The translations under genes were made by a program, and so were the position numbers. A model generated the notes under the pieces. That model searched no databases and was not told the DNA's origin. It saw only the letters and a program-made list of their open reading frames with translations. A stretch of DNA of 64,000 nucleotides from Vitreimonas sp. (lineage in GTDB: Bacteria; Patescibacteriota; Microgenomatia; UBA1400; PJMF01): positions 1,276,309-1,340,308 of the forward strand of contig DASPLQ010000012.1 in NCBI GenBank assembly GCA_035627515.1, given 5' to 3'. This document shows, piece after piece, positions 5,167 to 37,029 of the stretch (the first letter of the stretch is position 1; each line of letters starts with the position of its first letter).

Positions 5167-5171
5167 ATCCT

Positions 5172-7877: not shown

Positions 7878-7887
7878 AGCGGCTTGT

Positions 7888-8316
7888 TTAGCGCATCATT
7901 CCAATCACTACTGCCATAGCTAATAGCTGAGCCACCTGGTAACCCGTACTTAAGAAAAACAAACTCCATGATTTGTTTTCGTAAATGACTTGGGTGATTT
8001 GAGTAGGAACGATAAACCCTAACCAAGCTAAGAAGGCAAACATAGCTGTGGGTCGTACGCCGCCCATCAAAAAGGTTTGCGAAAACCAGACTAAAATTAA
8101 GGCTTGTAAAAGAGTAGCGGCAAAACTACTGCCCATAATTCCAGCCATGCCGCGGGCTTTGGCTTTAGCCATATCCTTAGCAGTAACTTTCATTAACTTC
8201 ATCCACATGTTCCCAAACAACACAGGTGAGTACCACACCATGCCAACTGTAAAACTGGCGAGAGCTGCTACAAATGCCATCACTAAACTATATGTTTCAA
8301 ACATACATTCTCCCAT
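7888..8316 (-). CDS. DUF1761-like membrane protein
   Basis: It has four hydrophobic helices. The ORF extends upstream to 8430, where it would overlap epmA by 53 nt, so the internal Met at 8316 or 8304 is the more likely start. Confidence 0.45.
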   Translation of the reverse strand: MGECMFETYSLVMAFVAALASFTVGMVWYSPVLFGNMWMKLMKVTAKDMAKAKARGMAGIMGSSFAATLLQALILVWFSQTFLMGGVRPTAMFAFLAWLGFIVPTQITQVIYENKSWSLFFLSTGYQVAQLLAMAVVIGMMR

Positions 8317-8377
8317 AGTTATATCTGAGTAATTATTTGGTAAATCAAGATTTACTGCAAGATGCGGAAAATATGTA

Positions 8378-9421: not shown

Positions 9422-10330
9422 TTAAGCTTCCAGTAATTGTAAATATTGTTTAATCCCACACATAAATTCTGGTTGACTGCAGCCTAAACAATTTTTAAAG
9501 GTATTAGTTAGGGACCAGGTTTTGACCCGAGCAGTAAGTTTATCGACCAACAACTGCGGATTTTCTTCAATACTGCCCAGTGAGGTGACGCCTTCACAAC
9601 ACCCAAAAACTTTGCCGTCAGACATGACTGCAATTTGATAGCACCCTAACTCTTTGGGAGGAAAAACATTGCGCGTTTTAATCACGTCTACCATTTCATC
9701 AGGGGTTAAAAAATCAAACCCATTTGTTTCACCCACGATATTAGAGACAGGGTGGTGCATTAGATAAGCCGGTGGTTTACGCGGATGGTAGGTGATGGTG
9801 GGTAAAAATCCTAGCTCTTTTTTTAAACTGGCTTCAAAAGCGTCAATGTTGGCTAAACTTTGTTTGGTCAAAATTGAAAAAACTTCTAAGTGAAAACCCA
9901 GCCGGTGGGCTTTTTTCATAAACTCAAGACTTTTGCGGAAATTACCTTCTCCCCGATTCGCATCGTGATAACTCTCTACGCCATCCAAAGAAACAATCAG
10001 GTTAATAAAGTTAGGCTGCCGAAGCTTATCCAGCTGATCAAGAGTCCCATTAGTGATAACTTGGACAAAGATACTTTGATCAACTAAAGTGTTCACAAGC
10101 TCAGGAAAACTGACTAAAGCAAAAACTTCTCCCCCACAAAAAGTGATAGTTTCTACCTTTTCCACTGCTTGATAACGATTCACGAAGTCAAGAATGGTTG
10201 CATTTGGTAAAATAGGGCTAGTTTTACGTGTATAACAGATTTTGCACTTCAGATTACATTTTTCCAGAGGATTAATGTATAAATGATGGAGAACATTTTG
10301 TAGATGGTCAGTAACTCGTTGGTTTAACAT
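9422..10330 (-). CDS. Radical SAM protein with C-terminal Cys-rich (SPASM/twitch-like) region
   Basis: The CNLKCKICY CX3CX2C motif sits near the N-terminus with a GGE motif downstream. The C-terminus reads GCCEG...CLGCSQPEFMCG. Confidence 0.7.
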   Translation of the reverse strand: MLNQRVTDHLQNVLHHLYINPLEKCNLKCKICYTRKTSPILPNATILDFVNRYQAVEKVETITFCGGEVFALVSFPELVNTLVDQSIFVQVITNGTLDQLDKLRQPNFINLIVSLDGVESYHDANRGEGNFRKSLEFMKKAHRLGFHLEVFSILTKQSLANIDAFEASLKKELGFLPTITYHPRKPPAYLMHHPVSNIVGETNGFDFLTPDEMVDVIKTRNVFPPKELGCYQIAVMSDGKVFGCCEGVTSLGSIEENPQLLVDKLTARVKTWSLTNTFKNCLGCSQPEFMCGIKQYLQLLEA

Positions 10331-19607: not shown

Positions 19608-20402
19608 TTAGTTAAATCGCGAAATAAGAAACTTAAATATTAAGTAACCTGTAATCATCGATATGATTGTTGATATAAAAGTACCTAAGAATATTCCCAC
19701 AGGTATATACGTCAACCTTACTGAAACTGAATAAACAATAATACTGATAGAAGCTAACATGGCACTTTTTGCCAAGCTTTTACAAAATTCAGCTCCATGA
19801 GACAGATAAGCGATAGTCAAAGTACTTGTAAACATCACCGGGAAGAGAGCCATTACACCTCCTAGCACTGGTCCCCCAACTTTTCCTAAAACAATTGATA
19901 AAACAATAATTAAACCACTCAGTAAACCTCGTGAAGCTACAGCCAAAGCGGAATACGTTAACCTTTTCCCCTCCACGACTTTAACCTCAACAATATATTC
20001 CATGTAAAAAAATGACAGTGAAGTTAAAAGAAAATAACTGAAAAAACTTAAAAAATAGTTGTGAAAGGACCCAGACAATGCAATAAAGGTCAGTATTGCC
20101 CAACTTAGTATTGAAATACACAAAGCTCGTATAAGTCCCAAAGGTAAAGATGCTACAAAAATGGCTAGAAATAAGCTTCCAATGCCGCCAATTAAAGGAA
20201 TAATCGAGGTAGCGGCGATCGCTGCCTGAGGAGATTGCGTCCAACCAATAAAAAATAACCCAAACAAAAGTGTCGAAGGCAAGCCAGTAACAAGGCCACC
20301 TATCTTAGGACCTAGTTTATCTGCTAAATATGTGGCCAGTATTACCCAGGACCCACCAATAAGAAAAGCCAACACTAATTTTATTAGAAAAAGAGTATCC
20401 AT
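19608..20402 (-). CDS. Polytopic membrane protein, unknown family
   Basis: The 264-aa protein has 7-8 hydrophobic helices. Confidence 0.45.
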   Translation of the reverse strand: MDTLFLIKLVLAFLIGGSWVILATYLADKLGPKIGGLVTGLPSTLLFGLFFIGWTQSPQAAIAATSIIPLIGGIGSLFLAIFVASLPLGLIRALCISILSWAILTFIALSGSFHNYFLSFFSYFLLTSLSFFYMEYIVEVKVVEGKRLTYSALAVASRGLLSGLIIVLSIVLGKVGGPVLGGVMALFPVMFTSTLTIAYLSHGAEFCKSLAKSAMLASISIIVYSVSVRLTYIPVGIFLGTFISTIISMITGYLIFKFLISRFN

Positions 20403-20440: not shown

Positions 20441-20512
20441 GAGCGGGTGAAGGGAGTCGAACCCTCGTCACCAGTTTGGAAAACTGGAGCTCTGACCGTT
20501 GAGCTACACCCG
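20441..20512 (-). tRNA. tRNA-Gly (anticodon TCC)
   Basis: I hand-folded a cloverleaf on the minus strand: acceptor GCGGGTG/CACCCGC, U8, D-stem GCTC/GAGC, anticodon loop TT-TCC-AA and T-loop TTCGACT. Confidence 0.85.
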
Positions 20513-20573
20513 CAAGAGTTGTATTGTACCTAGTTTCATGCGGAAACTCTAGTATCTGTGATTACTTATATAC

Positions 20574-21602
20574 CTACTTCTGCCGCCTGATAAACTCAAG
20601 CGTCGCAAACTCAATTGGTTTAAGGTGGTGAGCTGACCGTGGCTGGGTAGGGTAGTCGTGTAAATATTCTTGGAGAGCAGTGATTAATTTGCCGGCTAGG
20701 TAAGATTCCGGAACTAGGGGATGGACGTAATACTTGCGGCAAGTTGCCGGACGATTACCTAAGCGTTCAGCCACCACTTTAATTGTTTGAACTATATTTC
20801 TTTTCAATTGAGCTTCTTCCTCACATGGCTCACATGCTTGGAATTGTTCCGTGGCCAGCGTCGTGCCACCCCACGTCCGGAAGTCTTTAGCGGTGATGTC
20901 AGCATTCGTTAGAGACTGCAGGTAGTCATTGACGTCACCTGAGTGAATGGCGTGGTGCTGACCATTTTCATCTAGATATTGAAACAATTGATAACCAGGA
21001 ATTTCTTGGCTGGCTTTCACAATTTTCACTAAGCGTGGATTATCAACAGTGATGACGTGATCAACACCACTTTTACCGCGGAAATCGAAGACTATTTCGG
21101 TGGATTTTATCTTGGCATGTTTATCTCGCAGCGTCGTGAGGCCATATGACTTATTTTGTTGGGCATATTCTTCGTTACCAATTCGAATTAATGTCGTTTC
21201 CATCAACGCCACAATTGCGGCAATCACCTTTTGCTTACTCAAGCCCGAATCGCGCAAATGACCAGCTACGGTTTCCCGAATATTGGGTAACTGTTCACCA
21301 AAAAACACCATCTTATCGAATTTGTGTTGTTGTTGATGTTGTGACCACTCAGGATGATAACGATATTGTTTACGGCCTTTGCTATCGTAACCAGTAGCTT
21401 GTAAATGAGTACGCGGATCGGGCGAAATCCAGACATTTTGCCAAGCGGGAGGAATGACTAAGCTTTTGATACGCTCCAAGGAAACAGGGTCTATAATGCG
21501 CTGTTGGGATTCATCTAAATAAATGAAGTGCTGACCCTTTTTTTGCCGTTGGAAACCGGAGGGTCTTTCTGAGAGATACGTAATTGTAAAATTTGACATC
21601 AA
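20574..21602 (-). CDS. Type IB DNA topoisomerase (poxvirus/bacterial TopIB family)
   Basis: DSKGRKQYRY matches the poxvirus DSKGRRQYFY motif, KDFRTWGGT matches KDLRTYG, and the catalytic Tyr context is RKYYVHP (S/RKxxY). At 342 aa it is close to the Deinococcus TopIB size. Confidence 0.85.
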   Translation of the reverse strand: MMSNFTITYLSERPSGFQRQKKGQHFIYLDESQQRIIDPVSLERIKSLVIPPAWQNVWISPDPRTHLQATGYDSKGRKQYRYHPEWSQHQQQHKFDKMVFFGEQLPNIRETVAGHLRDSGLSKQKVIAAIVALMETTLIRIGNEEYAQQNKSYGLTTLRDKHAKIKSTEIVFDFRGKSGVDHVITVDNPRLVKIVKASQEIPGYQLFQYLDENGQHHAIHSGDVNDYLQSLTNADITAKDFRTWGGTTLATEQFQACEPCEEEAQLKRNIVQTIKVVAERLGNRPATCRKYYVHPLVPESYLAGKLITALQEYLHDYPTQPRSAHHLKPIEFATLEFIRRQK

Positions 21603-21619
21603 TACTATCCTCTATAACG

Positions 21620-22567
21620 TTATTTCATAAAAATGGCTCGTAACTGTCGTCGTAACGCACTCGTAAAAGCTTCATCAAATTTATTTTTGGCTATATATTT
21701 TTCTATGCCGGCACGCCGACGCTGAACCCGTGGCTGGTCATCCGAATCTGCTGAGGTCAACGATCTCGACTGGCGAAGCTCGTTTCTAGCCTTATTAAAG
21801 TAATCATAATGCTCGAGCTGGTTCTCAATAATTGGAATATATTTAGTTGCATTAAACACGGAAAAGCCTGGGAATTGCTGATGAAGAAACCTTAAGGTAT
21901 TCAAAGTTACTGCATTAGCATTTCGTTCTTTATTTGATTTTGTGAAAATATTCTGAGCTTTCTCATACTCACTAATGGCCGCATGGCCATTTTCATGTAG
22001 GTTTTTAAAGATAGTTTCCCAGCTCTCTCCCACTTTAACAGAGTTTAATACTTTCCGACCATAGATATCATGCTCCGAACTAATATCAGCAAACGTGAGT
22101 AAGTTTTCTCGGGGTTCTCCCAAACGAAAACGTAGTAAATCTATGCTGTTTTCTTCCAAATCATCAGCAACTAATAAATGTTCTAAATGAAAGGCGAGTG
22201 GTTGCCCATGATAAATTCCTGATGAACCAATTAATCCTGGTTTTACAATTGCCTTCAAATGTGAGCCTAACTCTAAAATAAAAAAAAGCTCTCCTTGTTT
22301 TCTTAATGCTCCCAGACAAGGCAGTGGTTCAACAGTGGTTCTGTCCATCACCGTCAAAGTGTCACTATGTTCAGTCTCTTGATAGCGGGAGATCAATTGA
22401 TATTGTTGATCAAACTCTGTTACCTCACCCTGAACATTACCTAATGATTCAGGTTCAAAACCGAGGGTATTTACTACCTGCTCAAAACTACCCCTCAGCA
22501 ACTCCGGACTAGCCAGTTTAGCTGGGGAAGTCTCAAAAATACTTATTTCTGAAGATGCCGTAAACAT
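21620..22567 (-). CDS. Hypothetical protein, co-oriented between the Y-family polymerase and TopIB
   Basis: The 315-aa protein has no Walker A motif, so it is not RecA/ImuA-like, and I recognise no domain in it. Confidence 0.45.
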   Translation of the reverse strand: MFTASSEISIFETSPAKLASPELLRGSFEQVVNTLGFEPESLGNVQGEVTEFDQQYQLISRYQETEHSDTLTVMDRTTVEPLPCLGALRKQGELFFILELGSHLKAIVKPGLIGSSGIYHGQPLAFHLEHLLVADDLEENSIDLLRFRLGEPRENLLTFADISSEHDIYGRKVLNSVKVGESWETIFKNLHENGHAAISEYEKAQNIFTKSNKERNANAVTLNTLRFLHQQFPGFSVFNATKYIPIIENQLEHYDYFNKARNELRQSRSLTSADSDDQPRVQRRRAGIEKYIAKNKFDEAFTSALRRQLRAIFMK

Positions 22568-22588
22568 ACTAGCCTTAGAGTACCATTT

Positions 22589-23917
22589 TTAGCCGAGCCG
22601 ACTCAATTGATAATCTTTATCTCCCAAGAAACCCGTCACTTCCGGTTTGATGATGCTGTCATAATCTATCAATAAAGCTGAGCGAATCGCAAACAACCCA
22701 TGTTTAAAAATAATTTTATCTAAAGCTGCGGAGAGTTTTTCACGCTGATGCCATTCTGGCCACAGTACTTGCGGCATTTCCCCCCAAGGGTGTAAGCCTG
22801 TGAGACGGACGCTGCACTTCACAATCGGAAACGTGCGCTGCCAGGGTTGGTACAACTGGTAATAAATTAAATCAAACATTTCCTGAGTATGCCGTACAGG
22901 GTGTGGAGTTTTCATTTCTCGCCCCCAGCGTTGGCCATTGTGACCGCGTAGAGAAATTCCTACCCGCCAGCCTGCTAAGTTGAGCTTGCGGACCTTATAA
23001 ATGACTTCATCAATCAAGTTATAGAGAATGCGCTTAATCGTATCTTCATCGTTCCACAATTTGTAACAGGTCAGTGATCGACCCACCATTTGCATATGAG
23101 CCACCCGGCGCGGTTGGTTGAAAAAATGAGGTTCTTCACCCTGACCGATCTTACGCAACTGCACTGACCAAAACGGTCCAAACTCCCGTTCTAGTTCAGT
23201 ATCAGGAATAAAATTAATTTGAAAAGGAGTGGTGACTCCAAATCGCTGTAACCGCTCAGCTAAACGAAACCCTACTCCACACACATCTTCAAAACCCACC
23301 CGAGCTAATAACGCGTCTTTATTATCTGGAGTAACCTCGGTAATGCTGCCTTTTGGTGACACCTCACTGGTCATTTTTGCCAGCAAACGGTTGTGACTGA
23401 TACCGACATTACACGTTACCCATTCACCGAGCGTGTCTTTGATTTTGGCTTGTAACAAGCGCGCAAAATCCCAGGCATCAGGGTATAACGTGCGTGAATA
23501 CGTCAGATTGATAAATGCTTCATCGAGGGAAAAAATGTCAACATCGGGACTTAAAGAATCAAAGAGTTTTTTTAAGCGTGTGGTAGCAGAGAGATAAAGA
23601 TCAAAATTGGCTGGTACAGTCATAAGGTCAGGTGCTAAACGTAAGGCTTCGGTTAAGTAACAACCCGTTTTGACACCAAGTTTTTTAGCTTCCTTAGATG
23701 AAGCAATTACACACGTACGACCTAAATCCTTCACCACTCCAATCGGCTTACCTCTCAGAGCGGGATTTTCTTGTTGCAAGAGCGTGGCAAAGTAAGAGTT
23801 GATATCGACGTGCACCCAACGGGCAGGAGGACCCTGAGCGTCTGGTTCAATAAGGGAAAGTGGCTTTACAAAACTCATCACACTCCTTCCTCTACCCATA
23901 CTTCTTCTAACATCCAA
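22589..23917 (-). CDS. Y-family DNA polymerase (DinB/ImuB-like)
   Basis: WVHVDINSYFA aligns to the DinB VDMDCFFA motif and SLDEAFINLT to SIDEAYLDVT, so the catalytic D and DE residues are retained. A GKPIGVV/ASSKEAKKLGVKTG block is also present. Confidence 0.8.
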   Translation of the reverse strand: MDVRRSMGRGRSVMSFVKPLSLIEPDAQGPPARWVHVDINSYFATLLQQENPALRGKPIGVVKDLGRTCVIASSKEAKKLGVKTGCYLTEALRLAPDLMTVPANFDLYLSATTRLKKLFDSLSPDVDIFSLDEAFINLTYSRTLYPDAWDFARLLQAKIKDTLGEWVTCNVGISHNRLLAKMTSEVSPKGSITEVTPDNKDALLARVGFEDVCGVGFRLAERLQRFGVTTPFQINFIPDTELEREFGPFWSVQLRKIGQGEEPHFFNQPRRVAHMQMVGRSLTCYKLWNDEDTIKRILYNLIDEVIYKVRKLNLAGWRVGISLRGHNGQRWGREMKTPHPVRHTQEMFDLIYYQLYQPWQRTFPIVKCSVRLTGLHPWGEMPQVLWPEWHQREKLSAALDKIIFKHGLFAIRSALLIDYDSIIKPEVTGFLGDKDYQLSRLG

Positions 23918-24132
23918 AACTCCCCATCACGGTGGAACAAAAGTCGATACAGATTTCCTTTGACTAAAACTGAGTAAAGACGGCGCTTAACTCCCCCATC
24001 TTTAATATCAGCAATCGAAGTAATTTTTTCTACTTTCAAGACTCGATCTCGCCATTGGAATTTAACAGGTTTAAAGGTAGAGTGAGAGTAGACCCCAATC
24101 ACGTCAATCTTTTCGTGAATTGTTTGGTACAT
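23878..24132 (-). CDS. Small hypothetical protein leading the polymerase cassette
   Basis: This 84-aa ORF overlaps the polymerase start by 40 nt in the same orientation. Confidence 0.35.
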   Translation of the reverse strand: MYQTIHEKIDVIGVYSHSTFKPVKFQWRDRVLKVEKITSIADIKDGGVKRRLYSVLVKGNLYRLLFHRDGEFWMLEEVWVEEGV

Positions 24133-25368
24133 AGTCCTATGGTAACACGAAGAATCCCCGAATCGTCAACCTGGCAGTTAGTGCTACTTTACTTATCTAA
24201 ACCGCTCATAGTAGGTCTCATTAACTTAGCGTTAGTACTAATAATTGGGGCAGTTCTGCAGCGTCTCCAGGTAGTGACAATGCTCACCGGCGGTCAGCCT
24301 TTACCTGACTTCGATGCCTACTATGAAATAGTCCGCCAAGTATGGCTGGGAAACCATCCCTATCGCATCTCCACAATGCAGACTTTAGGCCCACCCCTAG
24401 TGATTGTGCCCTTTTTGCCATTTGGCTTGATATCTATTGAACTGGGGCGAAGTTTCCTGACTTTACTCAGTTTGGGCTCAGTGGGAGCAACAGGATGGAG
24501 GTTGGCAGGAACATGGACTAAAAACCATCGTTCTCGCCTCACAGGAAGCTTGGTGTTAGTAGTGATACTACTGACTTCATTTCCGGCTCGGTTTACGTTG
24601 AGCATGGGTCAACCCAATTTAATTATCGCGTGGTTGGTGACCTTGTTTTTAACGACGGATAACCAGTTTAAAAGGGGAGCTAGCTTAGCTTTAGCAGCGA
24701 TTATTAAAACGTTTTATGGATTCCCAGCCTTGAGCCTGCTGCGATTTGATGGAAAGAGTTGGGTGAGTTTTTGCTTGGTTTTTGGATCAGTGTTGTTACT
24801 CAGTTTGCCATGGATTAGGCCGCATTATTATCTGGATTTTGCTACTCAGAACTTTGTAAGTCTGGTAACTAGTACTCAACCTGCAGTTGATATGGATTAC
24901 TATAATCAATCACTAAAAAGTACTTTTGGTCGATTTAACGCAATTGATTTTTACCAGCCAGCCATGGTGGGGTTCTTGAGTGTCAGTAGTCTGTATTTAT
25001 TAATGCGCAAAAATTACCCAGCTGCCATTGTCCTGTCGCTGATTTTGTCACCAGTGATTTGGATTCATTATTTTGTGGTCTTATTTCCGGTGATAGTGGG
25101 GTTAGGGGCGATCGTTAAAGAAGGGTATTACCCACTGCGACCAAAACTATTTTTAAGTTTAGTCCTGTTTGTAGCGAGCTACCTGTGGTGGACAGAGTTT
25201 CCCTGGATACACCAGGCCTCAAAAAATATCTTTACTGCTTTATTAGCCAGTCATTATTTGATCAGCGCCGGGTTGGTTTTAGGATTATGCGTGGGAATGG
25301 AGCATACTCTTCCTCACGGTCTCAATTTCCTAGTGACACAAAATGGTACTAAAAAAGACACTCATTAG
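24055..25368 (+). CDS. Polytopic membrane protein, possibly a GT-C-like (DUF2029-type) glycosyltransferase
   Basis: It has about 10 TM helices. The true start is probably an internal Met, because the first roughly 25 codons overlap the opposite-strand ORF. The family assignment is weak. Confidence 0.35.
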   Translation: MEFNRFKGRVRVDPNHVNLFVNCLVHSPMVTRRIPESSTWQLVLLYLSKPLIVGLINLALVLIIGAVLQRLQVVTMLTGGQPLPDFDAYYEIVRQVWLGNHPYRISTMQTLGPPLVIVPFLPFGLISIELGRSFLTLLSLGSVGATGWRLAGTWTKNHRSRLTGSLVLVVILLTSFPARFTLSMGQPNLIIAWLVTLFLTTDNQFKRGASLALAAIIKTFYGFPALSLLRFDGKSWVSFCLVFGSVLLLSLPWIRPHYYLDFATQNFVSLVTSTQPAVDMDYYNQSLKSTFGRFNAIDFYQPAMVGFLSVSSLYLLMRKNYPAAIVLSLILSPVIWIHYFVVLFPVIVGLGAIVKEGYYPLRPKLFLSLVLFVASYLWWTEFPWIHQASKNIFTALLASHYLISAGLVLGLCVGMEHTLPHGLNFLVTQNGTKKDTH

Positions 25369-25392
25369 AGCGGCCTCACTACCAGATTTCCC

Positions 25393-25422
25393 TTTTAACC
25401 TTGTTAAAAAATAGTATATAAT
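25393..25422 (+). promoter_or_regulatory. Putative promoter of the tRNA-Leu/tRNA-Pro pair (TTGTTA-N18-TATAAT)
   Basis: The -10 TATAAT lies at 25417-25422, 13 nt upstream of the tRNA-Leu 5' end. Confidence 0.4.
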
Positions 25423-25434
25423 CCGTGAGTGTTA

Positions 25435-25518
25435 GCCTCGATGGCGGAACTGGTAGACGCGCGAGACTTAAAATCTCGTTCCCGCAAGGGAGTGTGGGTT
25501 CGATTCCCTCTCGAGGCA
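25435..25518 (+). tRNA. tRNA-Leu (anticodon TAA), type II with long variable arm
   Basis: The acceptor stem is GCCTCGA/TCGAGGC, the D-arm reads TGGCGGAACTGGTAGACGCG as in bacterial tRNA-Leu, the anticodon loop is CT-TAA-AA and the T-loop is GGTTCGATTCC. The gene is 84 nt. Confidence 0.9.
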
Positions 25519-25559
25519 CAAGGCTAACTACACTTTAACATCCTAATCATTTTTCCACT

Positions 25560-25634
25560 CGGGGAGTAGCTCAGATGGCTTAGAGCGCGCGCTTTGGGAG
25601 CGTGAGGTCGCAGGTTCGAGCCCTGTCTCCCCGA
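25560..25634 (+). tRNA. tRNA-Pro (anticodon TGG)
   Basis: The acceptor stem is CGGGGAG/CTCCCCG with U8, the anticodon stem CGCGC/GCGTG, the loop TT-TGG-GA and the T-loop TTCGAGC. Confidence 0.88.
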
Positions 25635-25750
25635 CACAGTAGGGTTGTTTTTGAAATTTAAAGAATTCTTCATCGACCTGTAACTTGTTCTCGTCGTCAC
25701 ATGTATCTTGTAAGAATGAATTTTCAGTAAGTGCTTATAATTAATTTTAT

Positions 25751-26176
25751 ATGACACAATTTTTAAATATTATTTTAGGCATATGGTCTGCTATCGCAAC
25801 CATAATATCAATTTGGCAATTACTAGACGCAAGAAAGCATGCCGAAAGAAACAAAGCTCAAGTTAAGATTTGGCTGTATTGGGCACAAGCTTTACAAATA
25901 TCTCTATATAGAATAGTGCAAGATAATCTTGATAAGAGATATTCTTCAACTTCTGATATTGCGAACGCTGTTTGGTCACTTGAAACTATTGCTAATGGTC
26001 TAAGACAATCACTTTTTGATGAAAGAATTTATACAGAAAGTGAATATAAGAAAGAACAAAAGGAAATAATGGAGATGGTAAAGAAAAATAAAGAAGCTGA
26101 ACATAAAGTAAACCTAGAGCCTTTAAAGTTTCATGAAAAAAAATCAGGCGTTAGTCCTCATAAAAGAAAAAAATGA
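25751..26176 (+). CDS. Hypothetical protein with N-terminal TM helix, in an AT-rich islet
   Basis: The 141-aa ORF has a local GC content clearly below the window average. Confidence 0.4.
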   Translation: MTQFLNIILGIWSAIATIISIWQLLDARKHAERNKAQVKIWLYWAQALQISLYRIVQDNLDKRYSSTSDIANAVWSLETIANGLRQSLFDERIYTESEYKKEQKEIMEMVKKNKEAEHKVNLEPLKFHEKKSGVSPHKRKK

Positions 26177-29281: not shown

Positions 29282-30112
29282 ATGTCCGAAAAATTACCAC
29301 TTCACTTTATTCCCCGGTTCCAAGCCTATATCTATCATTTTTTTGATAATTATGGTCGGCACGATTTGCCGTGGCGCCAAAATTATGATCCTTATCGAAT
29401 TATGGTGTCAGAAATCATGCTCCAACAAACTCAGGTGGAGCGCGTGATTCCTAAATACCTAGCTTTTTTAGAAAAATTTCCGACGGTGGCTGCCTTAGCC
29501 ACCGCCCCTCAAAGCCAAGTCATTCAAGCCTGGCAAGGGTTGGGATATAACCGCCGCGGACTAAACTTGCAACGAGCAGCTCAAAGTATAGTTGCTGACC
29601 ATAATGGTCACTTTCCAGATACTGAAGCCGGTTTGTTAGCACTGCCGGGCATTGGCCCCTACACCGCCGCGGCTATTCGGGCCTTTGCTTTTAACCAGCC
29701 CAGCATCGTTATCGAAACTAACATTCGGACTTTATTTATTTTTCACTTTTTTCCCGAAGCTTATAATGTGGAGGATTTGCAGCTGTTACCGTTGATTGAA
29801 GCCACCTTAGACCACAAAAATCCTCGTCGCTGGTACTCAGCTTTAATGGATTATGGGTCTTACTTAAAAAAAGTCATCGAGAACCCCACCCGGCGCAGCA
29901 AAACCTATAGTAAACAAGCCCCCTTGGCTGGCTCGAATCGTGAAGCTCGCGGTCTGATTTTGAAAGTCTTAGCCACTCACCCCGTCTTAAGTTACCCGCA
30001 ACTCGAGCAGCACACCTTGTTAATAGCAGATCGGCTCCAACCCGCTCTTGATCAATTACTGCGCGAAGGCTTCTTGAAACAGATAGGCGACAACTACAGC
30101 CTGGCAGATTAG
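29282..30112 (+). CDS. MutY-like HhH-GPD adenine DNA glycosylase lacking the 4Fe-4S loop and the NUDIX-like C-terminal domain
   Basis: DLPWRQNYDPYRIMVSEIMLQQTQV and the HhH-GPD segment LPGIGPYTAAAIRAFAF are present. No Cys cluster follows, and the protein is only 276 aa. Confidence 0.75.
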   Translation: MSEKLPLHFIPRFQAYIYHFFDNYGRHDLPWRQNYDPYRIMVSEIMLQQTQVERVIPKYLAFLEKFPTVAALATAPQSQVIQAWQGLGYNRRGLNLQRAAQSIVADHNGHFPDTEAGLLALPGIGPYTAAAIRAFAFNQPSIVIETNIRTLFIFHFFPEAYNVEDLQLLPLIEATLDHKNPRRWYSALMDYGSYLKKVIENPTRRSKTYSKQAPLAGSNREARGLILKVLATHPVLSYPQLEQHTLLIADRLQPALDQLLREGFLKQIGDNYSLAD

Positions 30113-30123
30113 AATAAGGCTTC

Positions 30124-31098
30124 ATGAACTCACGTATTTATAAAACCATTGGCCTGGGAGGCACCTTTGACCACTTCCATGCTGGTCACGAAGCATTTAT
30201 TACTTTTGCCAGCCAACTCGCCAGTGAACTTTTGATTGGTTTAACTCACCCTAAGTTGACCATGTCCAAACCGTATGCTCACTTGATTGAGCCTTACGAT
30301 GTCCGTCGGCGCCAAGTCCAACTCTTTTGCCAACGCCATGGCATCAAGCACAGAATCACTGAATTAACTGACCCCATTGGCCCGACTTTAGAAAAAACTG
30401 CGGTCAGAGCCTTAGCCGTCACCAATGAAACTGAAGCTGGTGCCATTCAGATTAATACTTTGCGCCAAAAATTGGGTCTGAGACCATTGCCGGTTCATGT
30501 CACTCCTCTCATCAAAGATGAGACTGGCCAAGACATTCACTCAGTTCGTATCCGCGCGGGTGAAATTACTCGGGAAGGTGAGGTTTATAAGGCTCTTTTT
30601 GACCAAGATCTAGAATTAGGTCCTGATCAACGCCAATTCTTTGCTCAGCCCCAAGGCAAGTTGATTGATTTGACTCGCTTTACCTCACAACCTAAGAAAC
30701 AAACGTTAGTAGCGGTGGTAGGAGATTCTAGTCTGGAAACCTTTTTAAATGAGAAATGGACTCACACGCTGGGCATCTTTGATAAAAAACGAGCTCGTGA
30801 AAAATTTGAGTCAGCAGTGATTGATCAGTTAGTCAGTAGTACTGTGGCTAACCCAGCTGGCATCATCACAGTTCAATTGATTGAATCCTTACAAAACGCA
30901 CTCACTCAAAAAAAGTCCTACCTGTTTGTAGAGGGCGAAGAAGATTTGGCCGCAGTGGCTTTGGTGTTGCTAGCTCCCCTTGAGAGCTTAGTTTATTATG
31001 GCCAACCCAACCAAGGCATTGTGGAACTCAGAGTCACTGAAGAGCTCAAAAAAACGTTTTACCACGCTCTTAAAAATACGAACCTTTCCCAAAAATAA
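30124..31098 (+). CDS. Archaeal/eukaryote-type phosphopantetheine adenylyltransferase (COG1019) fused to a C-terminal domain of unknown function, possibly a DUF359-type dephospho-CoA kinase
   Basis: The N-terminal roughly 150 aa read IGLGGTFDHFHAGH...IGLT...GLRPLPVHVTPLI...IHSVRIRAG, which parallels Pyrococcus PPAT (VVVGGTFDRLHLGH...IGLT...GLKPLEIIVIPII...ISSSLIRAG). The C-terminal roughly 160 aa contain FVEGEEDLAAVALVLLAP. Confidence 0.65.
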   Translation: MNSRIYKTIGLGGTFDHFHAGHEAFITFASQLASELLIGLTHPKLTMSKPYAHLIEPYDVRRRQVQLFCQRHGIKHRITELTDPIGPTLEKTAVRALAVTNETEAGAIQINTLRQKLGLRPLPVHVTPLIKDETGQDIHSVRIRAGEITREGEVYKALFDQDLELGPDQRQFFAQPQGKLIDLTRFTSQPKKQTLVAVVGDSSLETFLNEKWTHTLGIFDKKRAREKFESAVIDQLVSSTVANPAGIITVQLIESLQNALTQKKSYLFVEGEEDLAAVALVLLAPLESLVYYGQPNQGIVELRVTEELKKTFYHALKNTNLSQK

Positions 31099-31119
31099 AC
31101 CCTGTGCTAAGCTAAAGAC

Positions 31120-32307
31120 ATGAAACCTTTAGCTGCCCAGCTTCGGCCGACCACCCTCGATGAGTTCATGGGTCAAAGCCACCTCGTGGGACCTAATCAG
31201 CCACTCCGGATTGCCATTGAACAAGATAAATTATTCTCGATGATCTTGTGGGGACCACCGGGCGTCGGCAAAACCACCCTGGCCCAAATCATGGCTCACC
31301 AAACTCAACGTAATTTTTATGAGCTCTCGGCAGTGTCCGCCGGCAAAAGTGACGTCCGGGAAATTATCGACCAAGCTCAAACTCACTTGCAACTGAAAGC
31401 ACCAGTATTATTTATTGATGAAATCCATCGCTTCAATAAAGCTCAGCAGGACTTTTTATTGCCCTATGTAGAAAACGGCACCGTGATCTTAATTGGTGCC
31501 ACCACTGAAAATCCTAGTTTTGAAGTCATTTCAGCTTTGCTGTCACGAAGCCGAGTCTTTGTTCTCAAATCACTGAATGAAACTGAACTTAAAGAGATCA
31601 TTGAGCGAGCGCTGCCCGCCTTACAAAGTAGCTACAACCATGAGTTTGTGATTGATGACGAAACTCAGGATTGGTTAGTTACCTATGCCAATGGTGATGC
31701 TCGTAAGTTATTGACCATGTTGGACAATACAGCCCAACTATATGAAGATTTAACAATCGAGACGTTTAAAGCTGCCCTGCAATCCAACCAGCTTCGTTAT
31801 GACAAAGGGGGAGAGGAGCACTATGACACGATTAGTGCTTTCATTAAATCAATGCGAGCCAGCAACACTGATGCTGCCCTGTATTACTTAGCTCGGATGG
31901 TTGACGCCGGGGAGGACCCCAAATTTATTGCTCGTAGAATGGTGATTTTTGCGAGCGAAGATATTGGCCTGGCTGTGCCCACCGCACTCGTCGTCGCTAA
32001 TGCAGTTTTCGAAGCTGTCACCAAAATTGGTTATCCTGAAGCCCAAATTAATTTAGCTCACGGCGTAGCATATTTATGCCAGTGTACTAAAGACCGCTCA
32101 GCTTATGACGCTTACTTTGCAGCCTTAGCCGACGTCAAAGCCCTAGGTAACCTGGCTATCCCTTTGGAACTACGCAATGCGCCCACTAAACTCATGAAAA
32201 ACTTGGACTACGGCAAAGGTTACGAAATGTATCCTGATAAAAACAAAAGCCTGTTGCCAGATAAATTGAAACGCAAAACCTACTTTAAGAAACCGCAATC
32301 AAAATAA
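31120..32307 (+). CDS. rarA: Replication-associated recombination protein A (AAA+ ATPase RarA/MgsA)
   Basis: The Walker A motif (GPPGVGKTT) and Walker B motif (LFIDEIHRFNK) are present, with the MgsA C-terminal domain. Confidence 0.9.
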   Translation: MKPLAAQLRPTTLDEFMGQSHLVGPNQPLRIAIEQDKLFSMILWGPPGVGKTTLAQIMAHQTQRNFYELSAVSAGKSDVREIIDQAQTHLQLKAPVLFIDEIHRFNKAQQDFLLPYVENGTVILIGATTENPSFEVISALLSRSRVFVLKSLNETELKEIIERALPALQSSYNHEFVIDDETQDWLVTYANGDARKLLTMLDNTAQLYEDLTIETFKAALQSNQLRYDKGGEEHYDTISAFIKSMRASNTDAALYYLARMVDAGEDPKFIARRMVIFASEDIGLAVPTALVVANAVFEAVTKIGYPEAQINLAHGVAYLCQCTKDRSAYDAYFAALADVKALGNLAIPLELRNAPTKLMKNLDYGKGYEMYPDKNKSLLPDKLKRKTYFKKPQSK

Positions 32308-33145
32308 CGCCCGCCACCATCATACAGATCGGGACTAAACGGTGCTTAATGTTTTCTTGAAAAAAATACCACCCCATCACTGATGAAAAAATAATACTGG
32401 TTCGTTTGACTGAGATGAGTAACACCGCCACCGACAAACTCTGACCCACCATTTGGCTTAACACAGATAAACCATCTAAAATACCCACCGGCAGGAGCTG
32501 CTTCATGTAACGTGACGTCAGTGATTGCTTAAATTGCTGACGATCCGCCCCAAACGCTAAAGGTGTAAACACCGCTGCCAACACCACTGCGCCCAAACCA
32601 GTGTAAAAATACGGATTTGAATGAGCAATAGCTAATTTGTGGAGGCTGCCGGTAATACCCCACAACACTGCCGCACCAAACATGCAAAATGTACCGGTAT
32701 CACGCGTCATACATAATAAGGGTTGCCACAGTGGCTCCTGGCGTTTGAAGTGTAAGATGTACATTCCCAGTACGATTAATATCACCCCGGCTAAACCGAG
32801 CTGTGAAGGAAATTCTTGATTGATTATCAATCCTGAGACCAATAACACCAAAGGCGTAAAAGAAAGCATTGGCAAAGTCAGTGATAAATCAGAACGTCGC
32901 AGAGCTTCTACATAAAGCAACAGCGAAATAAAATCTAATACAATCCGAGCGCTAAAAGCTAACCAAAAAACCGCATCTAACTGTGGGATACCATGCACAA
33001 ACATCACCGGCACTAAAATAATTAAGGAGTAAAAGACCCAGGCCCACGTCACAACTAAAGAGTTAAATGACTTAGTATTATGCTTAGCTAAAACATTCCG
33101 GCTGGCATCAAAAAAAGCAGAAAATAAACCCAATACGAACCACAT
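32285..33145 (-). CDS. EamA/DMT-superfamily transporter
   Basis: It has ten TM helices arranged as two EamA-like repeats. Confidence 0.6.
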   Translation of the reverse strand: MWFVLGLFSAFFDASRNVLAKHNTKSFNSLVVTWAWVFYSLIILVPVMFVHGIPQLDAVFWLAFSARIVLDFISLLLYVEALRRSDLSLTLPMLSFTPLVLLVSGLIINQEFPSQLGLAGVILIVLGMYILHFKRQEPLWQPLLCMTRDTGTFCMFGAAVLWGITGSLHKLAIAHSNPYFYTGLGAVVLAAVFTPLAFGADRQQFKQSLTSRYMKQLLPVGILDGLSVLSQMVGQSLSVAVLLISVKRTSIIFSSVMGWYFFQENIKHRLVPICMMVAGVILIAVS

Positions 33146-33181
33146 TTTTTGATTATAGCGCGTTTATGATAGGATGAATCA

Positions 33182-33568
33182 ATGAAACTAAACCCGCTGA
33201 CACCTGAAGAAAAGCGCGTGATTATTGATAAAGGCACCGAGGCTCCTTTCACCGGTGAGTATGACGAACATTTTGTGGAAGGGATTTATCTCTGTCGTCA
33301 ATGTGAGACACCTTTATATACTTCCACTGCTAAATTTCATTCCGGTTGTGGCTGGCCTAGTTTTGACCAGGAAATTCCGGACGCCGCCACTCACATTCCT
33401 GATCCTCGCTGGTATGGTAAGTACGATGAATTGATGTGTGCTCAATGTGGGGCTCATCTCGGTCATCTTTTCGAGGGTGAAGGGTTTACCGATAAAAACA
33501 CTCGCCACTGCGTCAACTCCATTTCCTTAAAATTTGTACCCCAAAAAGCGGAGGCACAAAATGTGTAA
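33182..33568 (+). CDS. msrB: Peptide-methionine (R)-S-oxide reductase MsrB
   Basis: Two CxxC pairs ([18 protein letters not shown]) and the catalytic region RHCVNS are present. Confidence 0.9.
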
Positions 33569-34097
33569 CTTAGAAACTGCAGTTTTTGGTGGCGGTTGTT
33601 TTTGGTGTACTGAGGCGGTCTTTCAACGATTAAAAGGTGTAGAACGCGTCGTTCCCGGTTATGCAGGGGGACGCTCACTAAATCCCAATTACTTTCGAGT
33701 CAGCGAAGGTATTACCGGTCATGCAGAAGTCATCAAGCTAGAGTTTAATCCTCAGATCATTAGCTACGAACAACTCCTTGATGTCTTTTGGCACGTCCAT
33801 GATCCTACCACTTTAAATAAACAAGGTGCGGATGTCGGAACGCAATATCGCTCGATTATTCTCTATACCAGTGATCAACAACGTATTACGGCTGAAAAAG
33901 CTCTTGCTGACCTAGAAAAATCAGCTGAATTTACCTCCCCCATCGTGACCGAGCTACAACCTCTAGACACCTTTTATGACGCTGAAGAGTACCACCGTAA
34001 TTATTTTGACCGCAATCAAACAGAACCGTATTGCGAGCTGGTCATTTCTCCTAAAATTGAGAAGCTGATTAAGCGTTATAATGACCTTCTAAAGTAA
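33561..34097 (+). CDS. msrA: Peptide-methionine (S)-S-oxide reductase MsrA
   Basis: The GGGCFWC active-site motif is present. The ORF opens at 33534, but the Met at 33561 immediately precedes the conserved core. Confidence 0.9.
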
Positions 34098-34099
34098 TT

Positions 34100-35020
34100 A
34101 TGCACTCTGTTTTAGAAGTCACTAACTTAACTAAGCGCTATGGCGAGTACACCGCTGTAGACCAAATCTCCTTCGATATTAAAGAGGGGGAAATTTTAGG
34201 ATTACTGGGGGCTAATGGCGCGGGAAAGTCTACGACCATCCAAATGTTGCTAGGCTTGACCGAACCCAATGGCGGCGAAATTAAGTATTTTGGTAAAAAT
34301 TTTGCTGATCATCGGGAAAGTTGTTTGTCACGCTTAAACTTTGCCTCCGCCTATTCAGAGCTCCAAGGTCGGATGAGCATTTATCAAAACCTCAAAGTGT
34401 ATGCAGCCTTATATCAAGTGCCTAAACCTGAAGAACGTATTGCTGAGTTATTAAGAATTCTAGAAATTGAAGCCGTGCGAGACGTGAATTTTTGGAAAGT
34501 GTCATCGGGACAAAAAACTCGTGCCATTTTAGCTAAAGCACTGCTCAATAATCCTAAAATGTTATTGATGGATGAGCCCACAGCCAGTCTTGATCCCGAC
34601 ATTATTAATAAGATTATCGATTTGATCAAAGAACTCCAAGTTACTCAAAAAATGAGCATTCTTTTTACTAGTCATAACATGGATGAAGTCACACGGCTGT
34701 GTGATCGAGTAGCATTTTTAGTCAAAGGTAAGATTGTAGCCCTGGATACGCCGCTTCAATTAACCAAACTAGTGGGTAAAACTAAATTGGTGATTACGTA
34801 CGAGGGTAAAAAGACCCAGATGACACAGTATTTAGAAACACAATCTTTGGCCCACCACCATGTCCGGAATGACGTGGTAGAAATTTCTGTAGCAGAATCA
34901 GAAATACCAGGTGTATTATTTGGTCTCAAAGGCGAAGAAATCTGGGTCACAAATATTAGTATCGAACAACCTTCATTAGAAGACGTTTTCTTGATGATGG
35001 CGAGAAAGAACGCTGTATGA
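34100..35020 (+). CDS. ABC transporter ATP-binding protein
   Basis: The Walker A motif GANGAGKST, the signature SSGQKTR and the Walker B motif LLMDEP are present. Confidence 0.85.
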   Translation: MHSVLEVTNLTKRYGEYTAVDQISFDIKEGEILGLLGANGAGKSTTIQMLLGLTEPNGGEIKYFGKNFADHRESCLSRLNFASAYSELQGRMSIYQNLKVYAALYQVPKPEERIAELLRILEIEAVRDVNFWKVSSGQKTRAILAKALLNNPKMLLMDEPTASLDPDIINKIIDLIKELQVTQKMSILFTSHNMDEVTRLCDRVAFLVKGKIVALDTPLQLTKLVGKTKLVITYEGKKTQMTQYLETQSLAHHHVRNDVVEISVAESEIPGVLFGLKGEEIWVTNISIEQPSLEDVFLMMARKNAV

Positions 35021-35799
35021 GCTGGGCCCGTATCAAAGCTATTTTATTGCATTCCTACTACCACACTAGTCATAGTGTGGAAACCTGGGTGGATTTAGGC
35101 TGGTTTACGTTCATTCAGCTAGGAGTATTTGGCTTTTTAGCTTCATTTTTTGCTCAAGGGAATCCTGAAATGGGTCGCGCTCTTTTATTGGGCTTCTTGT
35201 TTTGGGAAGTAGTCCGCATTGGACAATATTGTGTCTCAATTACCTTGATGTGGGAAGTCTGGTCGCACAGTTTGAGCACCATGTTTATCTCACCCTTAAC
35301 TATGGAAGAGTTTTTCACCAGCCAAATGATTTCAGGAGCAATTAAAACCTTAGGGCTGGTAGTACTGCTTAGTTTAACTAGCAAATTCATGTTTGGCTTT
35401 TGGATTTTTGAACTAGGTTTGATGTCTATTATCTATATCAGTCTGCTGTTATTGTTTTCATACGCCATGGGAATTTTTATTGCTGGTCTAATCGTTCGGT
35501 ATGGGACTGATATTCAGTCACTAGCGTGGGGATTAATCTTCATTTTTCAACCATTGTCGGCTGTTTATTATCCAGTGTCAGCGCTGCCACCTGCCCTTCA
35601 GTATGTGGCCATGATTTCTCCGATCACCTATGTAATGGAATCAGCTCGAATGCAACTCAGTGGCTTTTCACCACACTGGAACTACTTATTGATCTCAACT
35701 TTTTTGGGTTTGGCTTACTTTGCAGGCTCGCTGTGGTTCTTAAAAGCGATGTATTTACAAGCTCGACGGAATGGTTCGTTTGCCCGTCTTGGACATTAA
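35017..35799 (+). CDS. ABC-2 type transporter permease
   Basis: The protein has six TM helices, and its start overlaps the upstream ATPase stop by 4 nt. Confidence 0.65.
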   Translation: MSWARIKAILLHSYYHTSHSVETWVDLGWFTFIQLGVFGFLASFFAQGNPEMGRALLLGFLFWEVVRIGQYCVSITLMWEVWSHSLSTMFISPLTMEEFFTSQMISGAIKTLGLVVLLSLTSKFMFGFWIFELGLMSIIYISLLLLFSYAMGIFIAGLIVRYGTDIQSLAWGLIFIFQPLSAVYYPVSALPPALQYVAMISPITYVMESARMQLSGFSPHWNYLLISTFLGLAYFAGSLWFLKAMYLQARRNGSFARLGH

Positions 35800-35878
35800 T
35801 AGACCTATAATTATTTAGTTGTTTTTCACGGATATTTCACGAATTTTCACCAGATAATATTCGTGAAAATTAACATAC

Positions 35879-36460
35879 ATGCCGATCATCTATTTTATCA
35901 CCCATCCTGAAGTACTCATTAATCCTGAGCAAGACATTCAAGCGTGGTCACTTTCCGAAAAAGGCCAACAACGAACCCATAACTCTCTCGCCCAACCGTG
36001 GTGGCACGACATCGCCGCACTTTATTCAAGCACGGAAAGAAAAGCTATCGAAACAACCGAGATAATCGCTCACCAGCTTTCGCTCAAATACACACAGATA
36101 GCAACGCTCGGTGAAATGGACCGCTCCAGTACCGGCTATTTACCACGGGCAGAGTTCGAACTGACCGCCGACCACTTCTTTTCTCAACCCACAGTCAGTG
36201 TCAGAGGGTGGGAAAAAGCCGTTGATGCTCAGACACGTATTGTCACGGCTATTGATGACATCAGTAAACAGCATACTCATCAAAAAGTTACCATTATTTC
36301 TCATGGTGGGGTAGGGGCGTTATTACTCGCTCATCTTCACCACGCATCCATCTCTCGGCAGTTTGACCAACCTGGAAACGGTGGCGGCAATTACTTTGTC
36401 TTTGACACCCACACTCAGCAGGTTTTGACCACTTGGAAACCATTTGACGTAGTAGAATAA
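35879..36460 (+). CDS. Histidine-phosphatase superfamily (PGAM-like) protein, variant N-terminal motif
   Basis: IYFITHPE stands in place of the RHGE motif, so His is kept and Arg is replaced. The C-terminus reads VTIISHGGVGALL. Confidence 0.5.
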   Translation: MPIIYFITHPEVLINPEQDIQAWSLSEKGQQRTHNSLAQPWWHDIAALYSSTERKAIETTEIIAHQLSLKYTQIATLGEMDRSSTGYLPRAEFELTADHFFSQPTVSVRGWEKAVDAQTRIVTAIDDISKQHTHQKVTIISHGGVGALLLAHLHHASISRQFDQPGNGGGNYFVFDTHTQQVLTTWKPFDVVE

Positions 36461-36463
36461 GCT

Positions 36464-36976
36464 ATGCCTCTCGATAACCAATCAGAACGCTTCATTTGGG
36501 TTGATGAACACGACCAAGTGCTTGGTTCCATTTCCCGCCGCGAAGCCCATGATGGCACGCACAAGATTCATCGTGCTATGTACGTCATTTTACTCAATAC
36601 TCAAGGGGAGATTCTGATGCAGCAGCGCAGCGCGCATAAAGATTTATGGCCCCACTGGTGGAGTCTGTCAGTAGCAGGCCATGTCAGCGAGGGCGAAAGT
36701 TACGAAGATGCCGCCAAACGTGAAAGTCTGGAAGAAATTGGCCTTGAGCTCAAGTTTGAGTTCAAAGGTACTTATTTCAATCGCAATGATAAAGAAAGTG
36801 AGTACATTGCTGTTTTCACTGCTGTCTCTGATCTCACTGCTGATCAAATTAAGTTTGATGTGGATGAAGTTGAACAAGTCAGATGGTTGCCCCAGTCAGA
36901 ACTCAAAAGTTTTCTTGAAACTCATCAAATTGTGCCTCACGTCCCTCAGGCACTTAAAGTCGCTGGGTTGGGTTAA
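36464..36976 (+). CDS. NUDIX hydrolase
   Basis: The Nudix box GHVSEGESYEDAAKRESLEEIGL is present. Confidence 0.8.
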   Translation: MPLDNQSERFIWVDEHDQVLGSISRREAHDGTHKIHRAMYVILLNTQGEILMQQRSAHKDLWPHWWSLSVAGHVSEGESYEDAAKRESLEEIGLELKFEFKGTYFNRNDKESEYIAVFTAVSDLTADQIKFDVDEVEQVRWLPQSELKSFLETHQIVPHVPQALKVAGLG

Positions 36977-37029
36977 CAACTTTATACCACGCTACACTTC
37001 CTGCAAGCTTGAGTTGGTAAACTGCCCGC

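Follow-up and report, generated by a model that had tools for sequence, protein, structure and literature searches.

The locus described here raises the question of whether four adjacent genes constitute a single DNA-damage-tolerance unit or only happen to lie together. It is part of a 64,000 nucleotide (nt) stretch of contig DASPLQ010000012.1 (assembly GCA_035627515.1; "the window" below means this whole stretch), in which four co-oriented minus-strand open reading frames (ORFs) of 84, 442, 315 and 342 amino acids (aa) lie between a tRNA-Gly(tcc) gene and a pair of tRNA-Leu(taa) and tRNA-Pro(tgg) genes. The second ORF encodes a Y-family DNA polymerase and the fourth a type IB topoisomerase (TopIB). 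An earlier description made without database searches (the sequence-only reading) had proposed that these four genes are a horizontally acquired module in which TopIB and two uncharacterized partner proteins act together with the polymerase. Comparison with related genomes favors a smaller unit. It seems quite likely (a probability of about 75%) that the 84-aa gene and the polymerase gene are a conserved two-gene translesion-synthesis module of Patescibacteria, and that the two genes that follow are merely its local neighbors; the surprising part of the proposal, the link between TopIB and the polymerase, is not supported.

The small gene and the polymerase gene

The polymerase gene (22589-23878, minus strand) most likely starts at ATG 23878, which gives a 429-aa protein; the frame is open back to TTG 23917 (442 aa, 22589-23917), a less likely start. 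The protein has the Pfam domains IMS (3e-36) and IMS_C, its best NCBIfam match is the PRK03103 Pol IV subfamily, with a score under that model's cut-off, and in the PDB it matches Dpo4/Dbh-type structures at ∼1e-27 to 1e-28 (4e-28 for the Dpo4/Dbh chimeric pol IV 4f4w). Its catalytic Asp (in the motif VDINSYFA) and Asp-Glu (in SLDEAF) are D25, D119 and E120 in the 429-aa numbering; they lie opposite D7, D105 and E106 of Dpo4-type enzymes and are invariant in 21 of 21 relatives. The polymerase is catalytically intact, as the sequence-only reading had it.

Related loci were collected with the polymerase from one genome per species, which gave 20 loci, 19 of them from Patescibacteria (18 close ones, whose polymerases are 41-61% identical to that of the window, and the distant Saccharibacteria locus L022) and one from Lactobacillus. 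Look-ups with the small protein added three close loci, for a total of 21 close loci or, with L022, 22 Patescibacteria genome loci. The small gene lies directly upstream of the polymerase gene in all 21 close loci (tblastn), it is also found beside the polymerase in L022 by a hidden Markov model (HMM) search, and the two genes are adjacent on four contigs that were retrieved independently via the small protein. In most loci the two ORFs overlap by 1-13 nt. In the window the small gene (23878-24132, minus strand) ends ...GAAGGAGTGTGATGAGT, and its stop codon and the polymerase ATG at 23878 overlap by 1 nt (TGATG, in which TGA and ATG share the A); a Shine-Dalgarno sequence, GGAAGGAG, lies just upstream of this ATG, inside the small gene. 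With a shared stop/start base and a ribosome binding site of this kind, the two genes would be translationally coupled.

No third gene accompanies the pair in a recurrent manner. The gene after the polymerase varies among 20 loci, with MFS and LemA genes recurring in two loci each and an MFS gene also present on one of the contigs found via the small protein (a JGI contig). L004 and L005, the nearest relatives of the window locus, whose polymerases are 60-61% identical to that of the window, have the order small gene, polymerase gene, MFS gene and tRNA-Gly(tcc) gene. Within 10 kb of the polymerase, neither a TopIB gene nor a relative of the 315-aa gene is present in the 22 Patescibacteria loci or on the four contigs. 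Of the two partner proteins that had been proposed, the 84-aa protein is accordingly a conserved partner of the polymerase (adjacent in 22/22 loci and on the four contigs), and the 315-aa protein is not. In the relative L002, a PolX-like gene (6960-7964; domains HHH_8 and DNA_pol_B_thumb) lies directly upstream of the pair. The assembly, in which these proteins are encoded on a 1.41-Mb contig, carries the label "Vitreimonas sp.", which is the name of an alphaproteobacterial genus; the window has 42% GC and is 94% coding, the close relatives of its polymerase and small protein are all from Patescibacteria, and the label is probably a taxonomic error.

The small protein is a standalone version of the C-terminal domain of ImuB (ImuB-C). 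A profile search with its family retrieved 203 relatives, one of which is named "DUF6504 family protein" by NCBI, and the Pfam family DUF6504 (PF20114) is matched by 23 of 26 aligned family members (best E 6e-6). The same Pfam family covers the last ∼80 residues of bona fide ImuB proteins, with scores of 32.9 and 29.9 bits against a Pfam cut-off of 24.2 (the match of S. meliloti ImuB is weaker, E 0.0065); Pfam DUF6504 is the ImuB-C domain. In addition, hhalign aligns the small-protein profile with three ImuB C-termini along the pattern E-x-I-x-V...P-x-x-F-x-W-R (P = 4e-4). From these results the 84-aa protein is identified as an ImuB-C β-barrel encoded on its own. The AF2 model of the protein (58 sequences, pLDDT 92.6) is an all-β domain of seven strands, for which Foldseek returned no PDB neighbor at E <= 0.001, and the residues that are invariant in the family include R51, R63, R68 and W73. 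In published descriptions ImuB-C is β-rich, conserves basic residues and a C-terminal Trp, and forms a β-barrel without PDB relatives (PMC3765255; PMC12926913), and the fold and conserved residues of the small protein agree with that description. No paper in the literature library searched was found to mention DUF6504 or PF20114, and a tblastn search of plasmid sequences gave no match for the small protein.

The annotation pipeline PGAP gives the name "DUF6504 family protein" to full-length ImuB of plasmid imuA-imuB-dnaE2 cassettes (L058, 2591-4027; L059, 2501-4057), which masks its identity as ImuB. An uncharacterized 100-aa Siphoviridae protein (BFVD A0A8S5PG70) has the same fold as the small protein (TM 0.71, E 1.5e-3) and, judging from this structural match, may be a phage-borne ImuB-C.

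The last ∼60 residues of the polymerase are strongly conserved among 20 relatives and have the form ...E-K/R-hydrophobic-x-x-A-L-D-x-I-x-x-K-Y-G-L-F-T-V-R..., followed by R-P-E-V-T-G-F-L-G-D-K-x-Y-Q-L. The first part contains a candidate motif resembling the RecA N-terminal region (RecA-NT-like; 22694-22753, minus strand; WHQREKLSAALDKIIFKHGL). The second is the extreme C-terminal tail (22604-22648, minus strand; consensus xPEVTGFLGDKxYQL, window copy IKPEVTGFLGDKDYQ), in which E, V, G and G are invariant in the 20 relatives and P, T and D nearly so. By analogy with the polymerases discussed in PMC6511836, this tail could be a docking site for the small subunit or for the clamp. Three of 20 polymerase tails weakly match DUF4113 (E 0.067), a Pfam family that is tied to the RecA-NT-like region of UmuC-type polymerases (PMC6511836). 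The presence of a RecA-NT-like motif in the C-terminal extension is suggestive only, and binding of RecA by the polymerase is plausible by the same analogy.

Control region and relation to known systems

Upstream of the small gene, the minus strand carries a promoter-like region (24139-24169) that consists, in order, of a -35-like TTGACG (24169-24164), the direct repeat TTCG-N7-TTCG (24162-24148) and a -10-like TACCAT (24144-24139); the assignment of the -35 and -10 hexamers is our own reading of the letters. Across the loci, the -35-like hexamer is TTGACx or TTGAAA and the -10-like hexamer ends 5-6 nt before the ATG (6 nt in the window), from which a leaderless or nearly leaderless mRNA is predicted for the small gene. 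In 16 of the 21 loci the direct repeat begins 28-32 nt upstream of the start codon, and a position weight matrix (PWM) made from the relatives only ranks the window site (24147-24162, minus strand) first of ∼128,000 positions. The pair would thus have its own conserved promoter, with TTCG-N7-TTCG in the spacer as a putative operator. In form, the repeat resembles the alphaproteobacterial LexA box, GTTC-N7-GTTC.

Exact copies of TTCG-N7-TTCG elsewhere in ∼330 kb of the relatives' loci occur at chance level, and the total count of 3, where 1.43 are expected, is at chance level as well, so that no regulon can be claimed. An exact copy in the window (39291-39305, minus strand) lies 28 nt upstream of a staphylococcal nuclease (SNase)-like gene (38462-39277), the same distance as at the small gene, and in the relative L013 an exact copy (19662-19676, minus strand) lies ∼45 nt upstream of a RarA/MgsA homolog; by count, this does not exceed chance. 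Two of the five best PWM sites in the window, 24112-24127 (plus strand) and 44030-44045 (minus strand), are located 27 and 31 nt upstream of the start codon of a GT87-like gene and of VIT1, respectively. The upstream element, in whole or in part, may therefore belong to promoters of this genome more generally. The GT87-like gene in question is divergent from the small gene, and its ATG (24139-24141, plus strand) overlaps the -10-like hexamer described above. With just 6 nt between the start codons of these two genes, the promoter of each has to be located within the other.

Operons that join a standalone ImuB-C to an active Y-family polymerase (PolY) have been published, including lexA-imuB-C-polY of Geobacter (PMC6511836; PMC3765255). 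The window pair shares several features with systems of this kind (for example that of G. sulfurreducens, from the "GeoPolY-like" group, and the PolY-[ImuB-C]-RecA complexes; PMC3765255; PMC6511836; PMC12926913): a gene for a small all-β ImuB-C/DUF6504 protein directly upstream of an intact Y-family polymerase gene, a C-terminal polymerase extension (in the window family with a weak, candidate RecA-NT-like stretch), the absence of ImuA and DnaE2, and an ImuB-C fold without PDB relatives. On the other hand, lexA is absent from the operon and its surroundings in loci of the window type, as are canonical LexA boxes, and the promoter spacer carries TTCG-N7-TTCG instead; their small gene is apparently leaderless, and the window small protein is divergent, scoring near or below the Pfam cut-off. 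The lineage also differs, being Patescibacteria here; the word "Patescibacteria" is absent from PMC12926913, and the string "candidat" occurs once in PMC6511836. The pairing of ImuB-C with PolY is thus known in other bacteria and is here extended to Patescibacteria, in which it is widespread.

Two other kinds of mutagenesis system are similar in part. The ImuA-ImuB-DnaE2 cassettes used for comparison (those of S. meliloti pSymA and of A. pasteurianus and S. morindae plasmids) have in common with the window locus the ImuB-C/DUF6504 domain, the Y-family polymerase fold and a presumed role in damage-induced mutagenesis, but ImuB fuses the domain to a catalytically dead polymerase, whereas the window has a separate protein beside an active polymerase and no ImuA. 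Membership in this class was rejected: the window polymerase retains its active site, a Walker A motif is missing from the 315-aa protein, and no DnaE2-sized ORF is present in the 64-kb window, the longest ORF of which is 630 aa. In UmuD'2C (Pol V) and in the YolD/YqjX-UvrX/YqjW pairs, a Y-family polymerase gene is likewise preceded and overlapped by a small accessory gene, and PRK03103 is the best NCBIfam model for the window polymerase. The N-terminal D-I-N-S-Y-F-A of this polymerase also resembles DVNAFYA of UmuC. A UmuDC or YolD-UvrX assignment was set aside, as a Pfam scan of 26 small proteins gave no match to Peptidase_S24 or YolD; ImuB-C is reported to be unlike the SH3-like barrel of UmuD' and YolD (PMC12926913).

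By this comparison, the small protein would have no catalytic role of its own and would regulate or recruit the polymerase within a small, lesion-bypassing mutasome. Genomes of Patescibacteria are very small and encode few repair pathways, and a widely conserved, dedicated two-subunit translesion polymerase with its own control element suggests that regulated mutagenic bypass has been kept in them. An 84-aa subunit and an active polymerase of ∼430 aa would also make a compact system for the study of ImuB-C. Apart from the module in a new lineage, the locus yields an annotation for DUF6504 as ImuB-C, a candidate operator and a small family of HExxH proteins (discussed below).

A number of observations weigh against this view of the pair and its control. 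The window 84-aa protein taken alone has DUF6504 as its sole Pfam match, at E 0.011 and below the cut-off, and the hhalign match to ImuB-C spans just the N-terminal 29 columns. The resemblance of the polymerase C-terminal stretch to RecA is weak (hhalign against E. coli RecA residues 5-24 gives P = 0.0013 and a probability of 19%), and RecA was not among the PDB sequences recovered with a profile of the polymerase tail. A generic sigma-70 scan called no promoter at 24139-24169. The sequence-only reading had advised a search for LexA or other SOS-type boxes in the short leader (around 24130-24180); canonical LexA boxes (of the E. coli, Gram-positive, alphaproteobacterial, cyanobacterial and Geobacter types) and the Deinococcus RDRM are absent upstream of the pair in the 21 loci, where the different conserved element described above is present. 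There is no lexA or recA gene near any related locus either, and without such genes or boxes, control of the SOS type is unproven, and damage-inducible regulation of the pair is a presumption. Lastly, no terminator-like site lies between the polymerase, 315-aa and TopIB genes, so that co-transcription, and some coupling in this genome, is possible.

TopIB, the 315-aa protein and the tRNA genes

The TopIB gene (20574-21599, minus strand; 341 aa from ATG 21599, in an ORF of 342 aa at 20574-21602) encodes a bacterial (poxvirus-type) enzyme. The peptides DSKGRKQYRY, KDFRTWG and RKYY, by which it had been recognized, are present, and the identification holds: the protein has the Pfam domains Topoisom_I (PF01028, 8.1e-38) and Top1B_N_bact (PF21338, 8.2e-22) and matches Deinococcus TopIB (2F4Q) at E 1.5e-60, with R139, K176, R241, N282 and Y291 in place. 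These five residues lie opposite R137, K174, R239, N280 and Y289, the catalytic residues of the Deinococcus enzyme. Compared with D. radiodurans TopIB, the window protein has the same two-domain architecture and a complete R-K-R-N-Y set, and its sole oddity is its position downstream of a polymerase gene in this genome. It is 45-51% identical to the annotated TopIB proteins of Nostoc, Granulicella, Azospirillum and sphingomonads, and viral contigs contain no close relative of it. In 30 loci with TopIB relatives (43-53% identity, 51-72% GC), genes for Y-family polymerases, for the small protein and for the 315-aa protein are all absent, and no literature was found that links TopIB with Y-family polymerases by gene neighborhood. 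It is an ordinary bacterial TopIB and not a conserved neighbor of the polymerase.

These results bear directly on the proposal that all four genes are one horizontally acquired cassette for DNA-damage tolerance or processing, placed between tRNA genes, in which TopIB and the 315-aa protein work with the polymerase. The four genes are indeed co-oriented, with gaps of -1, 21 and 20 nt; no terminator-like minus-strand sites occur inside the run; tRNA genes lie on both sides (ARAGORN; tRNA-Gly(tcc), 20441-20513, minus strand; tRNA-Leu(taa), 25435-25519, and tRNA-Pro(tgg), 25560-25635, both plus strand); and the absence of the 315-aa and TopIB genes from this slot in relatives is compatible with the acquisition of those two. 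However, the gene order is found just in this genome among the 22 polymerase loci and 30 TopIB loci, and TopIB and the 315-aa protein are scattered elsewhere in relatives, an outcome that the sequence-only reading itself had named as one under which its idea fails. The gaps are real, but such spacing is the norm in this genome: the median same-strand gap in the window is 18 nt, 27 of 45 such gaps are <=25 nt, and the coding share is ∼94%. Since tight packing is general in the window, the short gaps among the four genes are no evidence of a functional operon.

The tRNA genes fare no better as borders. The four ORFs and the flanking tRNA genes are as had been described, but the interval also holds a fifth, unrelated gene on the plus strand, which encodes a GT87-like membrane glycosyltransferase (∼24139-25368; Pfam GT87, 8.9e-17), so the tRNA genes do not bound a four-gene unit. 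This gene is not part of the small gene-polymerase module; no GT87 homolog lies within 10 kb of the polymerase in related loci. In L004 and L005, tRNA-Gly(tcc) is again found downstream of the polymerase gene on the same strand, with the MFS transporter gene between them, and in L004, which has no TopIB there, tRNA-Leu(taa) and tRNA-Pro(tgg) lie ∼6-7 kb upstream of the small gene. With the same tRNA genes flanking the pair in L004 (and tRNA-Gly in L005), they are old neighbors of a resident pair and not the borders of an island. The four genes lie within ∼1.2 standard deviations (sd) of the window mean in GC content, GC at third codon positions (GC3) and codon usage, and so are ordinary for the window (the one deviation, in codon usage, is that of the very short small gene); no att-like, tRNA-derived or other meaningful repeats flank the region, and a family scan of the five protein genes between the tRNA genes found no recombinase. 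Nothing thus points to recent transfer, and a tRNA-associated island was rejected on these grounds. Given the unshared order, the ordinary composition, the lack of att repeats and recombinase and the ancestral tRNA genes, the four-gene cassette is most improbable, and the claim of an acquired module that ties TopIB and the 315-aa protein to the polymerase does not stand.

The 315-aa gene (21620-22567, minus strand) had been described as encoding a protein with no recognizable domain and no Walker A motif. The latter is correct, and the protein matches nothing in Pfam, NCBIfam, PADLOC or PHROGs, but it is not featureless. A word-index search found just the protein itself, and an exhaustive phmmer search was needed to retrieve its relatives, six proteins of about the same size (E 6e-10 to 4e-4); one more match, P0015 (3209 aa, repetitive), was discarded as a repeat-inflated artifact. 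In the alignment of the seven sequences (A3), H191, E192 and H195 of an HExxH motif (HENGH at 191-195), E214 and N218 are invariant in 7/7, and these columns make up a putative metal-binding signature (21914-21997, minus strand). A conserved hydrophobic stretch, consistent with a β-strand, precedes HExxH, and both motif elements fall in predicted helices of a single-sequence AF2 model, which is unreliable (pLDDT 40). The protein is thus a putative metallopeptidase of the zincin/gluzincin type. It is like the zincins in having HExxH, an invariant Glu 19 residues after the second His and both elements in predicted helices; it differs in that its family has no Pfam peptidase match or PDB sequence match, its fold is modeled at a pLDDT of just 40, and no linkage to polymerase genes is seen in relatives. 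A Pfam search at E up to 10 with the seven family members gave no peptidase family, including SprT-like, WLM and DUF955 (three spurious matches were each limited to a single member), and a profile search of the PDB sequences gave just Dps at E 0.08-0.5, which was treated as chance. A non-proteolytic, ferritin-like metal site is a conceivable alternative to peptidase activity.

The genes for the relatives of this protein are flanked by nusA-infB and dnaJ, or follow glycosyltransferase and UbiA genes (two further contigs with relatives are too short for context), and an HMM of the family finds no match in the loci of the polymerase or of TopIB. Genes for zincin-like metallopeptidases of the DUF955 family have been noted in occasional linkage with ImuB-C and DinB genes (PMC3765255), by which a functional tie to the polymerase is imaginable; yet the 315-aa family has no DUF955 match and no relative beside a polymerase, and the protein is not a conserved partner of the polymerase. 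A reading of the region as a defense system was also considered and dropped, PADLOC having returned no matches.

The HExxH motif invites a more specific explanation, a lineage-specific unit for the repair of DNA-protein crosslinks, in which a SprT/Wss1/SPRTN-like protease degrades trapped TopIB and the polymerase with ImuB-C bypasses the peptide remnant, all expressed from one promoter. In eukaryotes, covalent complexes of Top1 are processed by Wss1 and SPRTN, two proteases with ties to translesion synthesis. If the explanation were true, the capture of two genes behind the ImuB-C/PolY promoter in one lineage would have given a bacterial equivalent of this eukaryotic Top1-crosslink pathway. 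An invariant HExxH...E is indeed present in the protein encoded between the polymerase and TopIB, co-transcription is probable, and the DUF955 linkage noted above (PMC3765255) would fit as well. The arguments on the other side are that none of the seven family members matches a Pfam peptidase family of the SprT-like, WLM or DUF955 kind at E up to 10 and that the family has no PDB match; that its members are not located beside TopIB or polymerase genes, and TopIB relatives have no such neighbor; and that the arrangement is seen in a single genome, where unrelated genes are routinely packed together. Membership of the 315-aa protein in the SprT/Wss1/SPRTN-type proteases was rejected on the lack of SprT-like or WLM matches and the unrelated contexts of its relatives, and the crosslink-repair unit, for which nothing speaks but the adjacency of the genes in a single genome, is very unlikely. 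Better supported is the reading that Patescibacteria share a dedicated, apparently leaderless ImuB-C/PolY operon with a previously undescribed putative TTCG-N7-TTCG operator.

There are two ways to regard the 315-aa and TopIB genes if the pair alone is the module. Both are absent from the same slot in L004 and L005, where the MFS gene is found, and the small gene-polymerase pair itself is resident; the two genes would then simply occupy a position, between the polymerase and tRNA-Gly(tcc), whose content varies. In so compact a genome they are probably read through from the promoter of the small gene, and are probably co-transcribed passengers. Somewhat more specifically, the two could be a separately acquired or retained two-gene unit, unrelated to the polymerase, that replaced the MFS gene beside tRNA-Gly(tcc). 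The slot holds an MFS gene in L004, L005 and on the JGI contig, and the TopIB relatives (43-53% identity) come from contigs of 51-72% GC, including plasmids or chromids of Nostoc, Granulicella and Azospirillum, and none from the 42% GC Patescibacteria loci. Against this, the composition is not anomalous and neither mobility genes nor repeats are present, so any transfer would be old, and there is no evidence that the 315-aa and TopIB genes travel together elsewhere. We regard such a unit as possible but on the doubtful side; it is compatible with the two-gene module of small protein and polymerase, and is really a refinement of it.

Other features of the window

Signs of integration are found at the other end of the interval. 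The ORF at 25751-26176 (plus strand), beside tRNA-Pro(tgg), stands out among the 74 genes of the window by the lowest GC content (0.312, z = -2.75) and by the codon usage that deviates most, and in L004 a large serine recombinase gene and ∼5 kb of ORFans (4045-9775) lie beside the same tRNA-Pro gene. It looks as if tRNA-Pro is an integration hot spot.

Farther along the window is a loose cluster of DNA-metabolism genes (29282-39277), which comprises genes for an HhH-GPD glycosylase (29282-30112), RarA/MgsA (31120-32307), a RecQ-type helicase (37030-38481) and the SNase mentioned above (38462-39277). The gene directly upstream of the SNase gene (39310-41202, minus strand) encodes a radical SAM protein of 630 aa whose C-terminal region is GNAT-like, an architecture like that of ELP3.

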